This document shows positions 6,920 to 18,416 of a stretch of 28,428 bases of DNA, piece after piece. Positions within the stretch are counted from its first letter, which is position 1, and the number at the start of each line of letters is the position of its first letter. Below the pieces are notes generated by a model that worked only from the letters and a program-made list of their open reading frames with translations, was not told the origin of the DNA and did no database searches. The stretch lies in IMG/VR virus record IMGVR_UViG_2534682139_000012. One strand, written 5' to 3'. This DNA comes from a virus (lineage: Duplodnaviria; Heunggongvirae; Uroviricota; Caudoviricetes). The position numbers and the translations under genes are program-made.

Positions 6920-9756
6920 GTGAGTTTGCATGGAGCTGGAATGAACCACGGCCAGCCATTGATCCGGCCAGATTTACGGAGCACAGGCAGGAAACTGAAA
7001 CCGACCTGCAACGCGCCATCCGTTACTACCTTGAGGCGGACAAAAAGGCCCGGGAAGAACAGGAAGCGAAGGAGGAAGCCTTTTTCGCACAATCCGCCAT
7101 GGGTAAAAAACTCATGGCATCCCTTGAGGAAGCCGGACAGCGTGAAAAGCTGGCACAGAGCATCATCAGTAAGCGCCGGGCAACAGAACAAGACCCGGTG
7201 GCCCGTGCCTTTGCCACACTGAAGGCGCTTCCCGTTTATCTGCGAGAACCTCTGAGCCGCCACCTCTCTTTCCTGCGCAAGAAGCAGGAAGCCGATCGTC
7301 AGAAAGGCAAAAAGAGCTGGCAGGCGGAACGCTATGCACGCGGAACCCTGCGCAAAATATTCGAACGTCTGGACCGCACCGACAGCCGCTGGCTGACACC
7401 GGGTTATCGCTCCCTTGCCGGACGCGAACGCCTGGACGATTTGCTTTACCTGCCGCAGCTCAACAAACACCAGATACAGACGCTGGCCACCATGACGGCG
7501 GCGATGTTCAGCAGCACCTTCGAAAAACTCTGCGATGGCTTTGGCGCGACTGATGGCGAACTGACCATGGATGTAACGCTGAAGGCGTATCAGATGCTGG
7601 CCCGCATGGCGTTACACCTGCACGCCATGCCTCCACATTATGACGCACTGACAACAGACAAAGACCGGAGGAACGAACCGGACACGGAGCTGCTGCCGGG
7701 CGCAATCCTTCGCCTGACCTGTGCGGAATGGTGGAAACGCAAACTGTGGCTGTTACGTTGCGAGTGGAGAGAAGAACAACTCCGCGCCGCCTGTCTGGTT
7801 TCCAGAAAAACATCACCCTATCTGAGCCAGGACGCGTTAAGCGAGTTTCGCGCACAGCGCGAGAAAACACGCGATTTCCTGAAAAGTTTTATGCTGGAAA
7901 ACGAAGACGGGTTCACGATTGATCTCGAAACAGTGTATTACGCGGGAGTAAGTAACCCGGTTCACCGTAAGGCAGAAATGATGGCCACCATGAAGGGGCT
8001 GGAACTTCTGGCCGAAGCCCGTGGCGACAAAGCGGTGTTTCTGACTGTCACCTGCCCGTCAAAATACCACGCCACAACAGAGAACGGTCATCCGAATCCC
8101 AAATGGAACGGAGCCACCATGCGCGACTCCAGCGATTACCTGGTTAACACGTTTTTTGCGGCGGTCCGCAAGAAACTGAACCGCGACGGCCTGCGCTGGT
8201 ATGGCATCCGCACGGTGGAGCCTCACCATGACGGCACCGTGCACTGGCATATGATGGTCTTTGCTCATCCGGAAGAAATCGACACCATTGTGTCCCACAC
8301 CCGCGATATTGCCATTCAGGAAGATCGTCACGAGCTGGGTGATGATATTACCCCACGCTTTAAGGCGGAGTACGTCGACGGCTCAAAAGGTACGCCAACC
8401 AGCTACATCGCCACCTACATCGGAAAGAACCTAGACAGCCGCGCCGTGGATGGCATCGACCCGAAAACGGGCAAGCCACGCGTTGACCACGAAACCGGAA
8501 AATCAATGGCCGAGAGCGTGGAACGCGCCATCGGCTGGGCGCGCCTTCACCGTGTCCGCCAGTTCCAGTTCTTTGGTATCCCCTCCCGTCAGGTGTGGCG
8601 TGAACTCCGCCGCCTTGCCAGCCAGATGGCACGCAACCCGGAAGGCCCGCAACGGCTGAAGGATGACGCAATGGATGCGGTACTCGCTGCCGCTGATGCC
8701 GGATGTTTTGCCACCTACATAGAGAAACAGGGCGGCGTACTTGTTCCACGCAAAGACTACCTGATTCGCACCGCCTACGACCTCGCAGATGAGCTGAACG
8801 ATTACGGCGAACAGAGTGTACAGATTTACGGGATCTGGTCGCCGCTCATCGGGGAATCCTCCCGTGTGTGCACGCATCCGGATAACTGGAAGCTGGTAAG
8901 ACGTAAACCGGAAGCGGAAGACAGCGCCCGCGAAAATGGTTTTGACCTTCAGGGCGGCCCTGCCGCCCCTTGGACTCGTGGCAATAACTGTCCCCGTGTA
9001 CAGGAAACGGACAACAACGGGACAGAACAGCCGGAAGAACGGCCAGCACCGTGGCCGCAGCTTCCTGACGGCGTTGATGTGGATGAATGGGTGCGCTCAC
9101 TGAAACGGCACGAACGCCGGGCGCTGATGCGTTCGCTTCGTGACAAACAGGCAAAAAACAGCAGTGATGAAATGCAGAGCTGGACACAGAGCCGCAAACA
9201 GCAGCGGCCTTTGCCTGATAACCACGAATTACTCGCTAGAGAATGGCGGGAGTCTGCTGAATCTCTCGGCCTGCATATCGGTGAACAACAAATGCAGCAC
9301 CTGTTACGGGGCGGCAGTCTGTACGTTGACGGCAGCATCATTGCACCGCAGGGATTTGAAATTGTACGCAAACCGGATACCCGCCCGGACAGCCGAATCA
9401 CGCAGCTCTGGCAGCGCCTGAGCCGTAATCACGGTGTAAGCAGCACGGAGATCCGCCATAACCCGGTCGCCAGCTATCTGGCACAGCTGGGGGCATCAGA
9501 CCCTGAAGCCGCCACACGCCTGGCATCCACACTTCAGCAGGACCAGAACACCATGAAAACACCCGTTACCGTGCTTTCTGACATGCTGCGCGCCATCCGC
9601 GACGCAGAGCACGCACAGAGAATCAGTGAAACCACTGAACGTGCCCGCCGCAAAGCAGACCTGCTGCGGGGTGGCCTGACCAGTGGAAACAAAAAACAGA
9701 CAGAAACGGGATTCACAAATCCCGTAAATGAGCAAAAAACGCGCCGCGATATATGA
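6916..9756 (+). CDS. A: P2 gpA-like rolling-circle replication initiator (HUH endonuclease), with a long C-terminal extension
   Basis: HUH-like motif VHWHMMVFAHPEE and paired tyrosines in SYIATYIGKN; the 946 aa compare with about 760 aa recalled for P2 A; start chosen at the ATG coupled to the upstream stop. Confidence 0.85.
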   Translation: MSEFAWSWNEPRPAIDPARFTEHRQETETDLQRAIRYYLEADKKAREEQEAKEEAFFAQSAMGKKLMASLEEAGQREKLAQSIISKRRATEQDPVARAFATLKALPVYLREPLSRHLSFLRKKQEADRQKGKKSWQAERYARGTLRKIFERLDRTDSRWLTPGYRSLAGRERLDDLLYLPQLNKHQIQTLATMTAAMFSSTFEKLCDGFGATDGELTMDVTLKAYQMLARMALHLHAMPPHYDALTTDKDRRNEPDTELLPGAILRLTCAEWWKRKLWLLRCEWREEQLRAACLVSRKTSPYLSQDALSEFRAQREKTRDFLKSFMLENEDGFTIDLETVYYAGVSNPVHRKAEMMATMKGLELLAEARGDKAVFLTVTCPSKYHATTENGHPNPKWNGATMRDSSDYLVNTFFAAVRKKLNRDGLRWYGIRTVEPHHDGTVHWHMMVFAHPEEIDTIVSHTRDIAIQEDRHELGDDITPRFKAEYVDGSKGTPTSYIATYIGKNLDSRAVDGIDPKTGKPRVDHETGKSMAESVERAIGWARLHRVRQFQFFGIPSRQVWRELRRLASQMARNPEGPQRLKDDAMDAVLAAADAGCFATYIEKQGGVLVPRKDYLIRTAYDLADELNDYGEQSVQIYGIWSPLIGESSRVCTHPDNWKLVRRKPEAEDSARENGFDLQGGPAAPWTRGNNCPRVQETDNNGTEQPEERPAPWPQLPDGVDVDEWVRSLKRHERRALMRSLRDKQAKNSSDEMQSWTQSRKQQRPLPDNHELLAREWRESAESLGLHIGEQQMQHLLRGGSLYVDGSIIAPQGFEIVRKPDTRPDSRITQLWQRLSRNHGVSSTEIRHNPVASYLAQLGASDPEAATRLASTLQQDQNTMKTPVTVLSDMLRAIRDAEHAQRISETTERARRKADLLRGGLTSGNKKQTETGFTNPVNEQKTRRDI

Positions 9757-9832: not shown

Positions 9833-10792
9833 ATGAAAATTTGTATCGACGACGGCTCCACCAACATCAAGCTGGCATGGACTGAGAACAGCGAACGCCG
9901 CAACGCCATCAGCCCGAACAGCTTCAAGTCGGAATGGTCTGCGCCGTTCGGTGGCTCGCAGCCTGCGAACTACATGCTTGATGGCGTGCGCTATGGTTTT
10001 GATCCGGTCAGCGATCGCTTTGTCCAGACGACCGACACGCAATACCAGTACAGCGATGTGAATGTAATCGCCATTCACCACGCGCTGGTCAAATCAGGCA
10101 TCACACCACAGGAGGTGGATGTGGTTGTCACCCTGCCACTGAGCGAGTATTTCGACACAAACGCACAGCCGGACATGGCCAACATCAACCGCAAAAAAGC
10201 GAACGTTATGCGCCCGGTGGAGTACCAGAACGGCGAAGCATTCACTATCCGTAACGTGCGGGTTATGCCTGAATCCATTCCGGCTGGCTTTAAGGCACTG
10301 GCTGACATGAGTCCGTTTGAATCCCTGCTGATTGTGGATTTAGGCGGAACCACGCTGGATGTGGCAAAGGTCCAGGGACAACTGGCAGGTATCAGCCAGG
10401 TGTTTTGCGATCCACACGTAGGCGTTTCCCTGATGGCCGATGCCGTACTGTCGGTGATGGCCACTAACGGTATGCGTACCAGTCACCACATCGCCAATAC
10501 CATTATCGAACATCGCCATGATGAAGCCTGGTTGCGCCAACACATCCACAATGACGCGCATTACGCCAGCCTGATGGCGGTTATTCGTGAAAAGGAAGAA
10601 ACACTGAAACAACGCGTGATCCGCGCGCTGGCGGGTTTTTCGGGTTACGGACGGGTGATGGTTGTCGGTGGCGGGGCGGAGATTGTGGCACCCGCTATCC
10701 GCGAAGCCTGCGGAGTTAATGCGACTTTCATCGCGGACGGGGTGCCACAGTTTGCTCTGGTTAATGGGCTGTACGCAATGGACAAGGAGTAA
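9833..10792 (+). CDS. parM: ParM/StbA-family actin-like segregation ATPase
   Basis: N-terminus MKICIDDGSTNIKLAW ... SPNSFKSEW ... YSDVNVIAIHHAL closely resembles plasmid R1 ParM (MLVFIDDGSTNIKLQW ... SPNSFKREW ... YSDVNVVAVHHAL). Confidence 0.85.
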   Translation: MKICIDDGSTNIKLAWTENSERRNAISPNSFKSEWSAPFGGSQPANYMLDGVRYGFDPVSDRFVQTTDTQYQYSDVNVIAIHHALVKSGITPQEVDVVVTLPLSEYFDTNAQPDMANINRKKANVMRPVEYQNGEAFTIRNVRVMPESIPAGFKALADMSPFESLLIVDLGGTTLDVAKVQGQLAGISQVFCDPHVGVSLMADAVLSVMATNGMRTSHHIANTIIEHRHDEAWLRQHIHNDAHYASLMAVIREKEETLKQRVIRALAGFSGYGRVMVVGGGAEIVAPAIREACGVNATFIADGVPQFALVNGLYAMDKE

Positions 10793-10796
10793 ACCA

Positions 10797-11108
10797 ATGA
10801 CGACACCAACCAGACGGATAAGTTTCTATCTGAAGCCCGCCGCCGTCAAGAACGAAGGCGAAGCATGCGCCTGGCTGGACAGCCTTACACCAGAAGCCCG
10901 CAAAAGCGGCCAACGTGTGGCTTTTCTGGCCGGGCTGGCACTTCTGAAAATGAATCCGGCAGAGGCTTACCGACTGGCTGCATGGGCTGATGATGAAGCG
11001 TTATCAGTGACACAAACCAGGACAGAACGCCCCGCATCACAGCCAGTATCAACCGCACAGATAACCAGTCAGATGGCCGGAAATATCCGGGCGTTATTTC
11101 CTGAATAA
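10797..11108 (+). CDS. parR: ParR-like partition adaptor (DNA-binding partner of ParM)
   Basis: MTTPTRRISFYLKPAAV ... LDSLTPEARKSGQRVAFLAGLAL resembles R1 ParR (RRTIAFKLNPD ... LDSIPQGERSRLNRAALTAGLAL); RBS AAGGAG; directly follows parM. Confidence 0.6.
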   Translation: MTTPTRRISFYLKPAAVKNEGEACAWLDSLTPEARKSGQRVAFLAGLALLKMNPAEAYRLAAWADDEALSVTQTRTERPASQPVSTAQITSQMAGNIRALFPE

Positions 11109-11644: not shown

Positions 11645-12175
11645 TTATTCAGCATCGTCTCGTGCAGTCTGTGCATACGTCACAACAACGCCCAATGCAT
11701 TAGTTTTCTTTTCAACATAGATAATATTGTCATATTCATAGTTACCATACGGATAGCAAATAAGAATATTTTTATGCAGTTCGGGATCATCAACAAACGC
11801 TCCGGAACAGCTTCTTGAACTACCAGATGTATACTCATACGGTGCAACATATGATGATGTTACTCCTGGTAAAAAATAAGTCACCATCATAAGAGGGATA
11901 ATCAGGAATATCCCTGTAAGAATGCAAGAGCCAGCATAAACCTTCAGGTATTCCGACAGTCCTTTCCAGCCACTTTGCTTCACTACCCCCCTCTTCACCA
12001 GAAACAAGGAGAAGAAAAAGGACATACCCATACTACACAAGATGTAATAATTGGATATACGCGAATTAAGATATGTAATCCTGTAGATATCTGCCCTCCA
12101 CCAGTAAAAGAGGAAAATAATCCCTAGCACTGAAACAGTCATGCAAATCAAATAAGGATATGAATCTTTCTTCAT
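11645..12175 (-). CDS. AT-rich integral membrane protein of unknown function at the P2 tin/old-equivalent position
   Basis: 176-aa ORF with three or four hydrophobic helices and a Tyr-rich C-terminal domain; markedly AT-rich and opposite in strand to the flanking phage genes. Confidence 0.6.
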   Translation of the reverse strand: MKKDSYPYLICMTVSVLGIIFLFYWWRADIYRITYLNSRISNYYILCSMGMSFFFSLFLVKRGVVKQSGWKGLSEYLKVYAGSCILTGIFLIIPLMMVTYFLPGVTSSYVAPYEYTSGSSRSCSGAFVDDPELHKNILICYPYGNYEYDNIIYVEKKTNALGVVVTYAQTARDDAE

Positions 12176-12654
12176 GTCTTGCGCCCATTAAAATTTCCCT
12201 GCTACGAACAAATTTACCATCCGTTTTTTGCGCAGAAAACAGCACGATGCACACTGCACGATAGTGCACAAATTTGCACAATTTTTTTGAACGACTTTTT
12301 GCCCTTCCGGCCCCCGTGGCGGCTGGATCCGTCAAGGATCCGTGCGTGCACAAAAAAACGCGTTTTTTCTGCGCGCAGGTGACGGGGGAACAGCCCGCGT
12401 TTCAGGGGGTAAATAGCATTCCCTGAACGATGTCGCAGAGATACAACAGAATGGCTGTATTTCTCACGCTGAGCGTGAAAAAGACGTGAGGGCTTTTGAT
12501 TTGATGGGGTGAAAGGTAAGGCCGTCAAAATCGCACTGAGACGGCGAGAACATGCAGTCAACGCGGTGGGATTGCGTAAGAGTCTGACTGTCGATGATGG
12601 CAATCAGCAGGAAAGCGTCGTGAAATTATCTGACTGATACAGGAGCTGGAGAGT

Positions 12655-12679
12655 CGGGGCATAAATTTTTTATGCCCCG
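12655..12679. other. Perfect 11-bp-stem palindrome CGGGGCATAAA-ttt-TTTATGCCCCG just downstream of the portal gene (candidate terminator or packaging-region site)
   Basis: Read directly; lies in the 530-bp intergenic region where cos is expected by P2 synteny. Confidence 0.4.
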
Positions 12680-12705
12680 GCGAAGCAGCAGACAAGCGAA
12701 GCGCG

Positions 12706-13752
12706 TCAGGATGTGGGCTGGGTGTCTAACAGTGCGTAAGGGTTAAAGCGGATCACCTCTTCCCCAAGCCAGTCATTGATGTGCTTCATGGCCTCCATGA
12801 CGGGCATCAGCTCGTTAATTGCGTAAACCCGCGCGGCCTTCTCCACATCACCAAACGCACTTTTTTCGCCCGGCATCGCCCCCATCAGTTGCGGCGGAAC
12901 GCGGTGCGCAGCCAGCACATCATCACGGGATGCCGCCTTAACATTCATGAACTCATCCTTTGCGGTGATCTGCTGGAACGGCAAAATTTGCACCCCCTCT
13001 TTGCCCCCGTTGGGCGCATGGATGAGCACGTTTTTAAACGCGCCACCACCACGCGCACCCTGTAACGTTTCTTTCAGGGAGTCCATGCTTTCGCGGTTTA
13101 CCTGCGCTGCACCGATGTAGATGATGCACCCGGCGTGGGATCCATTGTCGTAATACAGTTTTCTGAACATGTCCGCCGAATGAGACAGGCTGGCCGAGAG
13201 TAATGCGCCAAGATATTCCGGCATGCCGTAAATTTCCTGGTTAATATCCGGATTCATTAGGTGGCACACTTTGCCAGGGCGAAACTGGAACGCGTCCTTG
13301 CCATCCTGCACATACCACCATGATTCAAGATCGCTTCCGCGTCGCATGTATTTCGCCAGTGCGTGCCGTAATTTAAGCGGTTCGCCGAGCATATTGCTTC
13401 TAAGCTCAAGGAATGCGTTACCGAACACAAACCAGTCCAGCGCCAGCGCCGAGAAATCCTGCCGGGAAAGCAGCGGGTGCGGGATGTAGCAACCGAGTAA
13501 TACATTGCGCTTAAAGTAAAGCGCAGACTGATGCCAGGACGTTTGCCGGGCTGCTCTTGCCAGACCGTACCAGTCCACCGGGGTTTCATACCACCGCCCG
13601 TTATCAGCACAGTACATATTGTCCAGCAGGTCATGCCCGGTCAGGCGATAAGGACCATCAAATGTGAATGCACTGAGCGATGATTCTTTCCTGAGCGCAT
13701 CAGCGAGATCAATGCGTGAACTCATGCGCACTTTTTTATTTTTTCTGCTCAT
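12706..13752 (-). CDS. Q: P2 gpQ-like portal protein
   Basis: 348 aa, position and orientation as in P2 (Q then P leftward, next to cos); length matches P2 Q (about 344 aa). Confidence 0.85.
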   Translation of the reverse strand: MSRKNKKVRMSSRIDLADALRKESSLSAFTFDGPYRLTGHDLLDNMYCADNGRWYETPVDWYGLARAARQTSWHQSALYFKRNVLLGCYIPHPLLSRQDFSALALDWFVFGNAFLELRSNMLGEPLKLRHALAKYMRRGSDLESWWYVQDGKDAFQFRPGKVCHLMNPDINQEIYGMPEYLGALLSASLSHSADMFRKLYYDNGSHAGCIIYIGAAQVNRESMDSLKETLQGARGGGAFKNVLIHAPNGGKEGVQILPFQQITAKDEFMNVKAASRDDVLAAHRVPPQLMGAMPGEKSAFGDVEKAARVYAINELMPVMEAMKHINDWLGEEVIRFNPYALLDTQPTS

Positions 13753-15503
13753 CAGAACTCCATAACCGTGAAACGCTCGTTTTCTCCTTCGCCGCCAATC
13801 GGTTCGTTAATGACAGCAAGCATGGTTGCCCACGCAAGGTCGCCGTGGCTGATCCCCCTCGCGCGGTCCGTTTCGTAAGTGATAAAGCCGCCCGGTGTTT
13901 TCACCTTACGCACGGCGTTAAAGGCCGCGACCAGCTCGCGTTCGGCGCGATCGTATTCCCACCGTCCGGCACGCATTATTTGCAGCATTTTCAGTACCAG
14001 CGACCGTTTGGATGACAGCGTGAAGGTGTACGGAATAGCAGCAGGGAAAAACCGCTTCACTATCTGATAAACAGCCTCCCCGTTCCCGCCCGTCACATCA
14101 ATGCCGATGTGTTCCACGTTGTAGCGACGCGTGAACTCTTCAATGACTCTGGCCTGTTCTTCAAACTCCAGCCCCTGAACGCGTCGCGTCTCCACCGTTC
14201 GAAAACGGCCGCCAGGAACAGCCGGAGGAACCACCACGGACACAGCGCCGCTGTCGCCGTTGCCACTGCTGCCGTTTGCGTCATACCCAATCCATACCGG
14301 ACGATTCCCCATCGGGCGGGGAGCAAAAGGTTTCCAGTCTTTCCAGTCGTCGTATCCGTCAACACCGCAGCCAATCAGGATATTCAGGTTAAATGCCGAT
14401 TCCCCTTCGCGGACAAACTCACACATATAGAGATTGAGGAACTCGTCTTCGGTGTTTTCATCACGAATTTCGTCGATATCGGTGTGTTTCCAGCCGTGAT
14501 TAACCACATCTTCCAGCGTGACAATTTGCCGCCACGTCCGGTCAGGGCAGATAAGCCCATTATGCAGCGTTTTCCAGTCCACAGAAAAACGCTGGCGTTT
14601 ATGCGAGGCCTTTTTCTCGTTCCAGCGGTCGCCGTTCCAGTAGGCGTATGCCTCGTGCGTTTCGGTGGATGGCGTGGAGAAGTAGGTGCGCCGCAGTCCG
14701 CTGAGGGTTGCCATAGCGCCAGCCACCTTGCGCAGTTCAGCAAAGCGACTGACCCAGAAGAATTCATCAAAATAAAAATTGCCCGTATAGGACTGTGCCG
14801 ACGCAGCAGAAGTGCCGAGAAAATGCAGCTCTGCGCCGTTGGAGAGGATGATTTTATCGCCCCCTTTCAGCTCCACATCAACTTCAGCCGCGGCCTTCTG
14901 AATAATGCTTTTAAACTGGAACGCCTGACGACGCGACGCAGACAAAAAAATCTGGTTACGCTGGTAAGGTTGCGCCACATCGTCACGCAGCGCCATCAGC
15001 AGTGCTTCCTGTGCAAAATACCAGGTCGCCCCAATCTGTCGGGATTTCAGGATCATCCTGTTACGTATCCCTGCTTCCCTGCAAAGGGTCAGGGAGTCAA
15101 ACCAGCCCCGCTGATGCCACTCCAGCCTGCTGATGATTTTTTCCCGCAGTGCGGCAATCTGTTTCGGCGTGAAATGATTTTTGAGTTTTTTCGCCCGGCC
15201 TTTCTTTCCTGCGGCCATCACATCCGGCTGGCCATCATGCAGCTTTTTAAGCTGCCGGGTCAGCAGGTCTATTTCCTTAAAGTCACCGCCTGTTTTATTC
15301 TGTTTTTCAGTAAGCTGGATGAGGCGCGCATCGATGGACTGCGTGACACGCTGCACGGGTGGCGTTTCATCCCACTGGTCACGTTTTTTCCACGCATAAA
15401 TCGTGTTCGGGTTTATTCCCATCAGACGTGATATTTCTGCGGGCGGATAACCCTGCCAGTAAAGTTGCCGCGCACGCTGGCGCACAAAAGCGTCCTGAAT
15501 CAT
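13752..15503 (-). CDS. P: P2 gpP-like terminase large (ATPase) subunit
   Basis: 583 aa; N-terminal HTH-like region, then an ATPase/nuclease body; stop overlaps the Q start by 1 nt; synteny with P2. Confidence 0.85.
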   Translation of the reverse strand: MIQDAFVRQRARQLYWQGYPPAEISRLMGINPNTIYAWKKRDQWDETPPVQRVTQSIDARLIQLTEKQNKTGGDFKEIDLLTRQLKKLHDGQPDVMAAGKKGRAKKLKNHFTPKQIAALREKIISRLEWHQRGWFDSLTLCREAGIRNRMILKSRQIGATWYFAQEALLMALRDDVAQPYQRNQIFLSASRRQAFQFKSIIQKAAAEVDVELKGGDKIILSNGAELHFLGTSAASAQSYTGNFYFDEFFWVSRFAELRKVAGAMATLSGLRRTYFSTPSTETHEAYAYWNGDRWNEKKASHKRQRFSVDWKTLHNGLICPDRTWRQIVTLEDVVNHGWKHTDIDEIRDENTEDEFLNLYMCEFVREGESAFNLNILIGCGVDGYDDWKDWKPFAPRPMGNRPVWIGYDANGSSGNGDSGAVSVVVPPAVPGGRFRTVETRRVQGLEFEEQARVIEEFTRRYNVEHIGIDVTGGNGEAVYQIVKRFFPAAIPYTFTLSSKRSLVLKMLQIMRAGRWEYDRAERELVAAFNAVRKVKTPGGFITYETDRARGISHGDLAWATMLAVINEPIGGEGENERFTVMEF

Positions 15504-17615: not shown

Positions 17616-18416
17616 ATGATTACTCCTGCACAGCAACACTGGCAGAACGTGATGGCACAGCGCGCAGGCCGGGCGAATGAAGGCGTGGACCACGCCGCGC
17701 GTACCGCGCATGAAGAGGTGCTGTATCGTCTGCGTCTGGCACAGGCCCGGCTTAAGGGCGTACAGGCCAGAAGCGCGAAAGCCGCCATCAAAAAAGAGTT
17801 GTTGCCGGACTTTTCCGGCTGGATTGAGGGAACGCTGGAGGCTGACGGCGGGCAACAGGATGAAGTGATTGCCACGCTGATGGTGTGGGCGATTGACTGC
17901 GGCGATCTTCCGCTTGCGCTGCGTATTGGTGCATATGTGGTCCGTCACAACCTCATCATGCCGGATAACTTTGGCCGTACTGCTGCCACGGTACTGACCG
18001 AAGAAATCTGTAACCCGGTATTGACGCAGGCTGGGACGGATGCCGACGCGGATTTGTCCACCTTTATCGAACCACTGGACACACTTTGGGAAATTATCGC
18101 CAACCAGGACATGCCGGACGAAGTGCGCGCCAAATTATGCAAGGCGTGTGCCTTTGCCCGTCGTGGCCTGACCGATGCAGACAACATGGCCTCATCACTG
18201 AAGCTGCTGCGCGAAGCGATGCACCTGAACCCGAACGCAGGTGTGAAACGCGAGATTGCAACCCTTTCCCGCGCCCTGAAAAAAGCTGATTCCGCAGCCG
18301 CACCAGAAGATGCCAGCACACCGCAGACGCAGGACGAAAGCAGCAAAAGTAAAAAGACAACGCGGAAGCCTGCAACACGAAAAACCACCGCGACGCAGAA
18401 GGCGAAGCGCGGTTAA
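17616..18416 (+). CDS. M: P2 gpM-like terminase small subunit
   Basis: Conserved MPDEVRAKL and KKELLP motifs; basic Lys/Arg/Thr-rich C-terminal tail; synteny. Confidence 0.85.
   Translation: MITPAQQHWQNVMAQRAGRANEGVDHAARTAHEEVLYRLRLAQARLKGVQARSAKAAIKKELLPDFSGWIEGTLEADGGQQDEVIATLMVWAIDCGDLPLALRIGAYVVRHNLIMPDNFGRTAATVLTEEICNPVLTQAGTDADADLSTFIEPLDTLWEIIANQDMPDEVRAKLCKACAFARRGLTDADNMASSLKLLREAMHLNPNAGVKREIATLSRALKKADSAAAPEDASTPQTQDESSKSKKTTRKPATRKTTATQKAKRG

Follow-up and report, generated by a model that had tools for sequence, protein, structure and literature searches.

A candidate P88-type cos site between the cargo genes and portal gene Q of a P2-like prophage

We analysed the gap between the cargo genes and the portal gene Q in a stretch of viral DNA of 28,428 nucleotides (nt), IMG/VR record IMGVR_UViG_2534682139_000012, which is called the window throughout and to which all positions refer unless another sequence is named. 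The map of open reading frames (ORFs), Pfam matches and a comparison with P2 proteins identified the stretch as a P2-like prophage of the P88/Xuanwuvirus type, and positions 12254-12420 very probably constitute its cohesive-end site (cos). The site is the element expected at this place in the P2 family, diverged beyond the reach of naive sequence matching and retaining the layout of the mapped sites. It lies past the 3' end of Q, its short sequence boxes keep their positions among relatives, and it is shared with a satellite element that resembles P4.

Box layout, satellite sharing and position of the site

The top strand of the gap carries the box TGCAC at 12248, 12255, 12265, 12275 and 12347, four of the five reading TGCACA. 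A previous examination of the same DNA from its letters alone, here called the sequence-only reading, had listed these repeats among several possible packaging signals in the gap, and they are the part of its list that belongs to the conserved cos layout. Chance levels were obtained from Markov-1 randomisations of the 530-nt region; at least five TGCAC within 105 nt occurred in 0 of 3000 randomisations, with 0.17 expected and a Poisson probability of about 1e-6.

The box positions were then compared with those of annotated cos sites. P88-type sequences were anchored at GCGCGCA/GGTGACGGGGG, the slash marking the aligned nick here and below, and P2, 186, PsP3 and P4 were measured from their annotated nicks. 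On this scale the boxes start at -123, -113, -103 and -31 in the window, in the active phage P88_4B11, in the satellite, in the prophage AST19 and in phiT5282H. The corresponding TGCAT boxes start at -123, -111, -101 and -29 in P2, at -124, -111, -101 and -29 in 186 and P4, and at -120, -111, -101 and -29 in PsP3, so that a phased set of three TGCAY boxes, about 100-125 nt to the left of the nick, is present here as in P2, 186, PsP3 and P4. The proximal box stands at -31 in all P88-type sequences and at -29 in P2, 186, P4, PsP3 and an intermediate prophage described below (L011), and in both types TGCAY lies at a distance of 36 nt from CGGGG. The core follows the P2-family pattern with a 2-nt shift: TGCAC stands at -31, and GCGCGCA occupies -7 to -1. 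The P2/P4 core is a 55-bp segment that runs from a TGCAT box to GCGCGC just beyond the cohesive end (cited in PMC5694545) and is credited to Ziermann & Calendar 1990 (via PMC9122126 and PMC5694545). The complete four-box layout is found at a single place in the window and was produced by 0 of 300 randomised windows. The alignment with the P2 and 186 cos regions, which the sequence-only reading had proposed as a check, thus returned a matching TGCAY layout. On this comparison the TGCAC boxes are a conserved signal of the cos region, and the phased, position-locked boxes are most likely its terminase-binding subsite, for which they are the best candidates.

An alternative reading sees in the TGCAC boxes a promoter or operator that serves the hotspot cargo genes, which are transcribed leftward, and confines cos to the core at about 12371-12400. 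We consider it unlikely. The P2 old-tin mRNA, which starts at 33424/33426 and runs leftward, has a promoter that overlaps TGCAT boxes at about 33452-33478; the leftward cargo gene of the window starts at 12175, and a copy of the distal boxes moved with that gene into phage 434. There, however, in a phage with no P2-type packaging, two of the three boxes have decayed, and elsewhere the box positions are kept whatever lies to their left, be it the plus-strand integrase gene of the satellite, the plus-strand psu gene of P4 or the plus-strand genes of P88_4B11 and phiT5282H. The distance from box to nick is constant within about 2-3 nt across genera, which a promoter of variable cargo would not need, and no sigma-70-like promoter was called in 12000-12900.

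The assignment of the region to cos is further supported by its occurrence in the satellite, a P4-like element found in E. coli NCTC9082 (NZ_LR134080.1 4007155-4019321). Prophage and satellite have only 12254-12420 in common, at 79.5% identity. The satellite carries Icd-like, alpha-type primase, integrase, ogr/Delta-like and gpN-like capsid genes, and no terminase or portal gene was found in its 12-kb locus. P2 and P4 likewise have only the cos core in common (PMC9122126). Sharing of this kind is the hallmark of P2-family cos and argues for the same identity here. The satellite is present in about 56 complete E. coli genomes; of the 40 satellite genomes listed, 27 have another cos-like place as well, compared with about 20% of all genomes, clonal relatedness not being controlled in this comparison. 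The element is thus often accompanied by a P88-like prophage.

Some properties of the satellite locus (L010) were recorded in addition. Its cos-like DNA, at 6001-6167 of the locus, is a P88-type cos (GGTGACGGGGGAACAGCAC). Unlike P4, it has a gpN-type major capsid gene (7731-9002), whose product of 423 aa is 35% identical to the gpN of the window and bears a 118-aa N-terminal extension; a 236-aa protein without known function is encoded upstream of this gene.

The sequence-only reading had expected cos, by P2 synteny, in the gap just past the 3' end of Q, and synteny, box layout and satellite sharing together uphold this placement. The gene order of the window, with the replication gene followed by partition genes of the ParM/StbB type, cargo genes, the gap, and then Q, P, O, N and M, is that of P2; Q and P lie on the minus strand and are read away from cos, and O, N, M and L lie on the plus strand. 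The counterparts of the P2 head and packaging proteins show 37-47% identity. Among phage records, those of the P88/Xuanwuvirus group come closest in DNA sequence, at 93-98% identity from about 12253 rightwards. The DNA of 12240-12470 is present in 1,148 of 5,426 complete E. coli genomes (about 20%). The distance from the end of the putative 19-nt cohesive end to the Q stop codon is 309 nt, compared with 167 nt in P2.

It is extremely improbable that cos lies elsewhere in the window, or that the prophage is packaging-defective and the region a relic. The similarity of the 19-mer to known ends is by itself not significant, and the ends of the prophage are putative; these points would fit such a view. 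Against it, the box layout is found nowhere else in the window, the position of the region fits P2 synteny, and the head and packaging genes are intact ORFs. Moreover, 12240-12470 recurs at 100% identity in other E. coli genomes, and the active phages P88, which is inducible (PMC5285337), and PhiSM, which is spontaneously active (PMC6456863), match 12335-12425 at 98-99% identity.

Conservation of the island and the putative cohesive end

The region 12254-12420 forms a conserved island, flanked on the left by variable cargo DNA and on the right by lineage-specific DNA. Of 84 related IMG/VR loci, about 70 show an abrupt onset of similarity to P88-like phages at 12252-12256. In divergent IMG/VR lineages conservation is limited to 12256/12266-12399/12423 and similarity resumes at the Q gene, and in Peduoviridae of Klebsiella and Enterobacter blastn recovers nothing but 12366-12399. 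Variability was expressed for each column as the fraction of sequences that differ from the majority base among 71 distinct relatives. It was 0.585 in the left cargo DNA, 0.055 in the distal boxes with their T-run, 0.221 in the GC-rich spacer, 0.041 in the proximal TGCAC box with its A-tract, 0.292 in the palindrome centre and T-arm (the right half of the palindrome), 0.010 in GCGCGCA, 0.199 in the right flank and 0.268 in the downstream DNA.

These values bear on the other signals proposed by the sequence-only reading, namely a perfect 16-nt palindrome (AAAAAACGCGTTTTTT), a direct repeat (GGATCCGT-caa-GGATCCGT) and a hairpin with an 11-bp stem. All four features that it described, the TGCAC repeats included, exist in 12176-12705. 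The hairpin, a perfect stem of 12655-12665 and 12669-12679, lies exactly where it had been placed; the palindrome and the repeat are found at 12353-12368 and 12325-12343, 3-4 nt away from the positions given (about 12350-12365 and 12321-12339). The chance probability of a 16-nt palindrome is about 0.01 in the 530-nt region and about 0.37 somewhere in the 28-kb window; it is about 0.12 for an 8-nt direct repeat within 20 nt, which is not significant, and about 0.002 for a perfect 11-bp stem. The TGCAC cluster and the hairpin are thus clearly non-random, the palindrome moderately so, and the direct repeat is not.

That palindrome, repeat and hairpin themselves direct packaging, as parts of a novel cos or pac with no relationship to the P2 site, is very unlikely. 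The rarity of the palindrome in a region of this size would speak for such a role, as would its place immediately left of the putative nick, within a longer imperfect inverted repeat (12343-12357 and 12363-12377). However, the active phage P88_4B11 and AST19 have the palindrome in imperfect form, and it is replaced by unrelated sequence in the satellite, phiT5282H, Klebsiella and divergent IMG/VR loci, where the 31-nt spacing is kept. The satellite and those Enterobacter, Klebsiella and IMG/VR lineages that retain boxes, spacing and core either lack palindrome (A6CGCGT6) and repeat or have them in degenerate form, and the two elements fall within the most variable columns of the island. The hairpin stands 259 nt to the right of the 19-mer, beside the Q stop codon and outside both the conserved island and the DNA shared with the satellite. 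The palindromes are therefore not conserved among relatives, an outcome that the sequence-only reading had named as refuting its proposal, and drop out as packaging signals, and the location of cos in the gap is upheld all the same. Judged from the alignments, palindrome 12353-12368, which separates the proximal box from the putative nick, and the GGATCCGT repeat belong to lineage-specific spacer DNA.

Immediately right of the palindrome lies GGTGACGGGGGAACAGCCC, a putative diverged homologue of the P2-family cohesive end that the sequence-only reading had overlooked. It is preceded by GCGCGCA, which occurs in all P88-type sequences examined except phiT5282H (GTGCGCA) and which aligns with GCGGGCG in P2 and P4 and GTGGGCA in 186, immediately 5' of their annotated nicks. 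The suspicion of the earlier reading that the packaging site has diverged from that of P2 was borne out, since a blastn search with the region and with a 91-nt core made no connection to P2, 186 or P4, and the best 19-mer matches the P2 end at only 13 positions; in the same search no record started or ended at the candidate nick. Likewise, no IMG/VR contig ends at the nick, the search pattern having spanned the nick so that contigs starting exactly there were undetectable.

A bridge between the two types is provided by a prophage of E. coli 23CRST028 (L011), in which boxes of the P88 type precede GCGCGCA/GGCGAGGCGGGGGAGCAAG/CGCGCGCAAA. Its 55-nt core agrees with that of P2 at 39 of 55 positions without gaps, its end GGCGAGGCGGGGGAGCAAG matches the P2 end at 15 of 19 positions as counted by eye, and its right flank CGCGCGCAAA is that of P4.

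Several observations weigh against the assignment of cos, or against its details. The 19-mer GGTGACGGGGGAACAGCCC agrees with the P2/P4 end GGCGAGGCGGGGAAAGCAC at 13 of 19 positions, which is the chance level when taken alone and is reached at six sites of the window, and a local alignment of the window to the P2 55-bp core was not significant. A 6-nt deletion in the active phage P88_4B11 spans the 3' edge of the 19-mer, so that the right nick, and with it the length of the overhang, is provisional. The boxes stand 2 nt farther from the aligned nick than in P2, and the left nick could thus be at 12376 rather than 12378. In P2 the distal boxes extend into the DNA that immediately precedes the old-tin transcript starts, and a role of the boxes in transcription is conceivable. 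The IMG/VR search pattern included 12375-12393, where invariance arises by construction; 12371-12374 lay outside the pattern and yet showed a variability of only 0.01. Finally, searches of a literature library found no published mapping of virion ends for any P88-type phage; they likewise yielded nothing on how the P2 cos is subdivided. As 13 of 19 is the chance level, the assignment rests on the box layout, the sharing with the satellite and the L011 intermediate, and the putative nick positions are good to about ±2-3 nt.

Other approaches to the ends were discarded. The similarity of the 19-mer was dropped as evidence in itself, and a Hamming search with the P2, 186 and phiRSA1 ends was not discriminating. 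The start of record LR595891, at window position 12300, was rejected as a mapped end, since nt 1 of that record was chosen relative to reference genomes after circular assembly (PMC6969025). A cos at 12325-12351 (GGATCCGT...GTGCAC), proposed through a GC hairpin likened to CCGCCC..GGGCGG of P2, was rejected on the satellite, the L011 prophage and the box spacing.

By homology with P2, 186 and P4, the P88-type cos would work as follows. After excision and replication of the prophage, the terminase, composed of a gpM-like small and a gpP-like large subunit, would recognise cos, most likely through the phased TGCAC boxes at -123, -113, -103 and -31. Staggered nicks would then flank the G-rich core at about 12378-12396, the left one falling after GCGCGCA, and would generate 5' cohesive ends of about 19 nt, and the genome would be packaged through the Q portal. 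Cleavage, the exact nick positions and the protein that reads the boxes are all transferred from these phages.

Other features of the gap and its surroundings

The positions of the features are collected in Table 1.

Table 1. Features of the region around the candidate cos site (window positions)
Feature	Position	Strand	Remarks
Cargo gene for a 176-aa membrane protein	11645-12175	-	phrog_1416
Variable cargo-gene DNA	12176..12253	-	Upstream region of the 176-aa membrane-protein gene; not part of cos
Candidate cos region as a whole	12254..12420	+	Conserved island common to helper phages and satellite
Distal triple TGCAC boxes and T-run	12255..12290	+	Boxes at 12255, 12265, 12275; 10-bp phasing; putative terminase-recognition subsite
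GC-rich lineage-specific spacer	12291..12346	.	Holds a CCGGCC/GGCTGG stem (12307-12326) and the GGATCCGT repeat (12325-12343)
Proximal TGCAC box and A-tract	12347..12358	+	Counterpart of the TGCAT that opens the P2/P4 55-bp core
Left flank of the putative top-strand nick, GCGCGCA	12371..12377	+	Aligns with sequences 5' of annotated nicks
Putative 19-nt cohesive end, GGTGACGGGGGAACAGCCC	12378..12396	+	Putative boundaries, ±2-3 nt
Right flank of cos	12397..12420	+	Common to the satellite (GCGTTTCAGGGGGTAAATAGCATT); similarity to the satellite ends at 12420
ORF of 42 codons, GTG start	12509..12637	+	Hypothetical in P88_4B11; not part of cos
Hairpin with 11-bp stem	12655..12679	.	Between the convergent Q gene and small ORF; position of P2 tQ and 186 tW
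Portal gene Q	12706-13752	-	Pfam Phage_portal; 47% identity to P2 gpQ
Terminase large subunit gene P (gpP-like)	13752-15503	-	
Terminase small subunit gene (gpM-like)	17616-18416		

On the left of the island, the 5' end of the cargo gene and its upstream DNA are 79% identical to the b-region of phage 434. The recurring segment is 12100-12312 of the window, which is found at this identity in the b-region of the lambdoid phages 434 (OL657226.1; 1501-1713 of locus L015), mEp332 and 2B8, and in phage 434 the copied stretch takes in the distal cos boxes in decayed form. The alignment suggests that the cargo gene was exchanged between a lambdoid phage and a hotspot of the P2-like kind and carried some of the DNA on the left of cos along with it. 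Farther left, the replication gene is followed directly by an actin-type partition module (9833-11108), made up of ParM (StbA_N/ParM_N) and a Plasmid_stab_B-type protein; P88_4B11 and the AST19 remnant have such a module annotated as well.

AST19 is a degraded P2-like prophage of E. coli (L009; 6001-6145 of the locus corresponding to 12254-12398) that has been interrupted by IS421 and whose replication and terminase genes are truncated. Its match to the window drops from about 93% identity to roughly 60%, as estimated by eye from the alignment, at 12398, adjoining the 19-mer. This sharp drop fits, and suggests, a role of cos as a recombination joint, a role that has been proposed for the adjacent hotspot (PMC9122126).

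The right flank of cos is variable, with indels, among close relatives, and 6 nt of it are missing in P88_4B11. An inverted repeat, TTCAGGG-N12-CCCTGAA, is present at 12401-12427, just right of the putative cohesive end, and its RNA fold has a z of -3.6; the stem is longer in P88_4B11 through a T-to-C change, and the inverted repeat is not retained in the satellite.

The segment 12421-12654 is a spacer specific to the E. coli P88 lineage. The sequence-only reading had described the whole gap as a large intergenic region; its flanks are as stated, with the cargo gene on one side and Q on the other, and a 42-codon ORF lies inside it. Of 33 distinct versions of this ORF, 26 are intact, but amino-acid changes are numerous; it is missing from the satellite and from distant relatives, and its predicted product had no match in Pfam or PHROG. 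In some relatives (L049 and phage records H11-H14) about 585-650 bp are inserted between 12633 and 12643, where the small ORF gives way to the Q-proximal hairpin; the stretch from cos to Q would then hold a second, small slot for cargo. The insertion of about 585 nt echoes phiRSA1, in which extra ORFs lie between cosL and the Q homologue at a place called an insertion hotspot (PMC5694545).

The hairpin lies 26 nt past the Q stop codon, compared with 5-8 nt past the portal genes for P2 tQ and 186 tW. Its RNA fold is stable from both strands, at -24 kcal/mol (z = -3.8) for the minus and -30.7 kcal/mol (z = -5.1) for the plus strand. It has no U-tail on either strand and the terminator scan made no call there, so that it does not qualify as a canonical intrinsic terminator; it may be a terminator-like stem after Q that pauses or stops transcription or stabilises the mRNA. 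A search of Rfam gave nothing above threshold, a gyrA match on the hairpin scoring 22 bits against a gathering score of 45. One 'terminator' that was called elsewhere was spurious, being formed by two of the TGCAC boxes.

Significance and comparison with known cos systems

The assignment leaves the understanding of P2-family packaging unchanged. It would locate the packaging site of a very common group of E. coli prophages, in whose records, as far as they were examined, cos is unannotated, and it identifies a matched satellite lineage. It tells the conserved elements (boxes and core) apart from a dispensable-looking spacer that holds the palindromes, and it fixes the right-hand boundary of the defence/cargo hotspot at 12253/12254. 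The 167-bp fragment 12254-12420 is a candidate for use in P88-type cosmids or transducing particles. We tentatively propose, with somewhat less confidence than doubt, that the P88-type cos represents a separate packaging-specificity class within the P2 family, with the same phased TGCAY layout, a shifted and diverged nicking core and its own capsid-encoding P4-like satellites. If this is true, the TGCAY layout may be a terminase recognition code that extends through the family as far as phiCTX, the cos sites of helper and satellite would co-vary, and cos would act as a recombination joint that shuffles the adjacent defence/cargo hotspot.

The closest known counterparts of the site are the cos sites of P2, 186, PsP3 and P4, which form 19-nt 5' cohesive ends and lie at the same place, with the cargo hotspot on one side and the 3' end of the portal gene on the other. 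In common with them, the site has a G-rich core, GG(C/T)GA..CGGGG..A.AGC, a left nick flank GCG.GC(G/A), and a TGCAY about 30 nt left of the nick in addition to the three phased ones beyond it; as in P2 and P4, it is common to helper and satellite. It differs from P2 in a cohesive end that is only 13/19 identical and goes undetected by blastn, and in that the ends are here deduced from sequence. Its boxes read TGCAC instead of TGCAT and are displaced by 2 nt, away from the aligned nick, an A-tract/T-tract segment takes the place of the P2 GC hairpin CCGCCC..GGGCGG left of the nick, and the right flank YGCGCGC of P2, 186 and P4 is not present.

A more distant resemblance is seen in phiCTX of Pseudomonas, whose record annotates cosR, repeats R3-R6 and a binding site for integration host factor (IHF); short repeats flank cos there as they do here. 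The proximal sequence of phiCTX, TGCAGAAAAAGAGG...TTTAGAGCGGA/GGCGTGGCGGGGGG, at 29 nt from the nick, resembles TGCACAAAAAAACGCG...CTGCGCGCA/GGTGACGGGGG of the window. With TGCAGAAAAAG at -29 and ...AGCGGA/GGCGTGGCGGGGGG at the nick, its spacing of 29 nt is that of the P2 type, whereas its repeats (CGCAGAAAG or TGCAG) and its annotated cohesive end of 21 nt set it apart.

The cos of lambda (cosQ-cosN-cosB) is a functional analogue, in which a nicking site is accompanied by adjacent repeated terminase-binding elements. It has 12-nt ends and an R-site/IHF organisation, and it serves packaging from concatemers; it has no sequence relationship to the cos of the window. P2 packages from circular monomers.

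Lastly, the mapped end of phiRSA1 from Ralstonia, GGTGAGGCGGGGTCCAAC, which begins GGTGAGGCGGGG, starts with GGTGA...GGGG as in the window (PMC5694545). phiRSA1 differs from the window in host and flanks.

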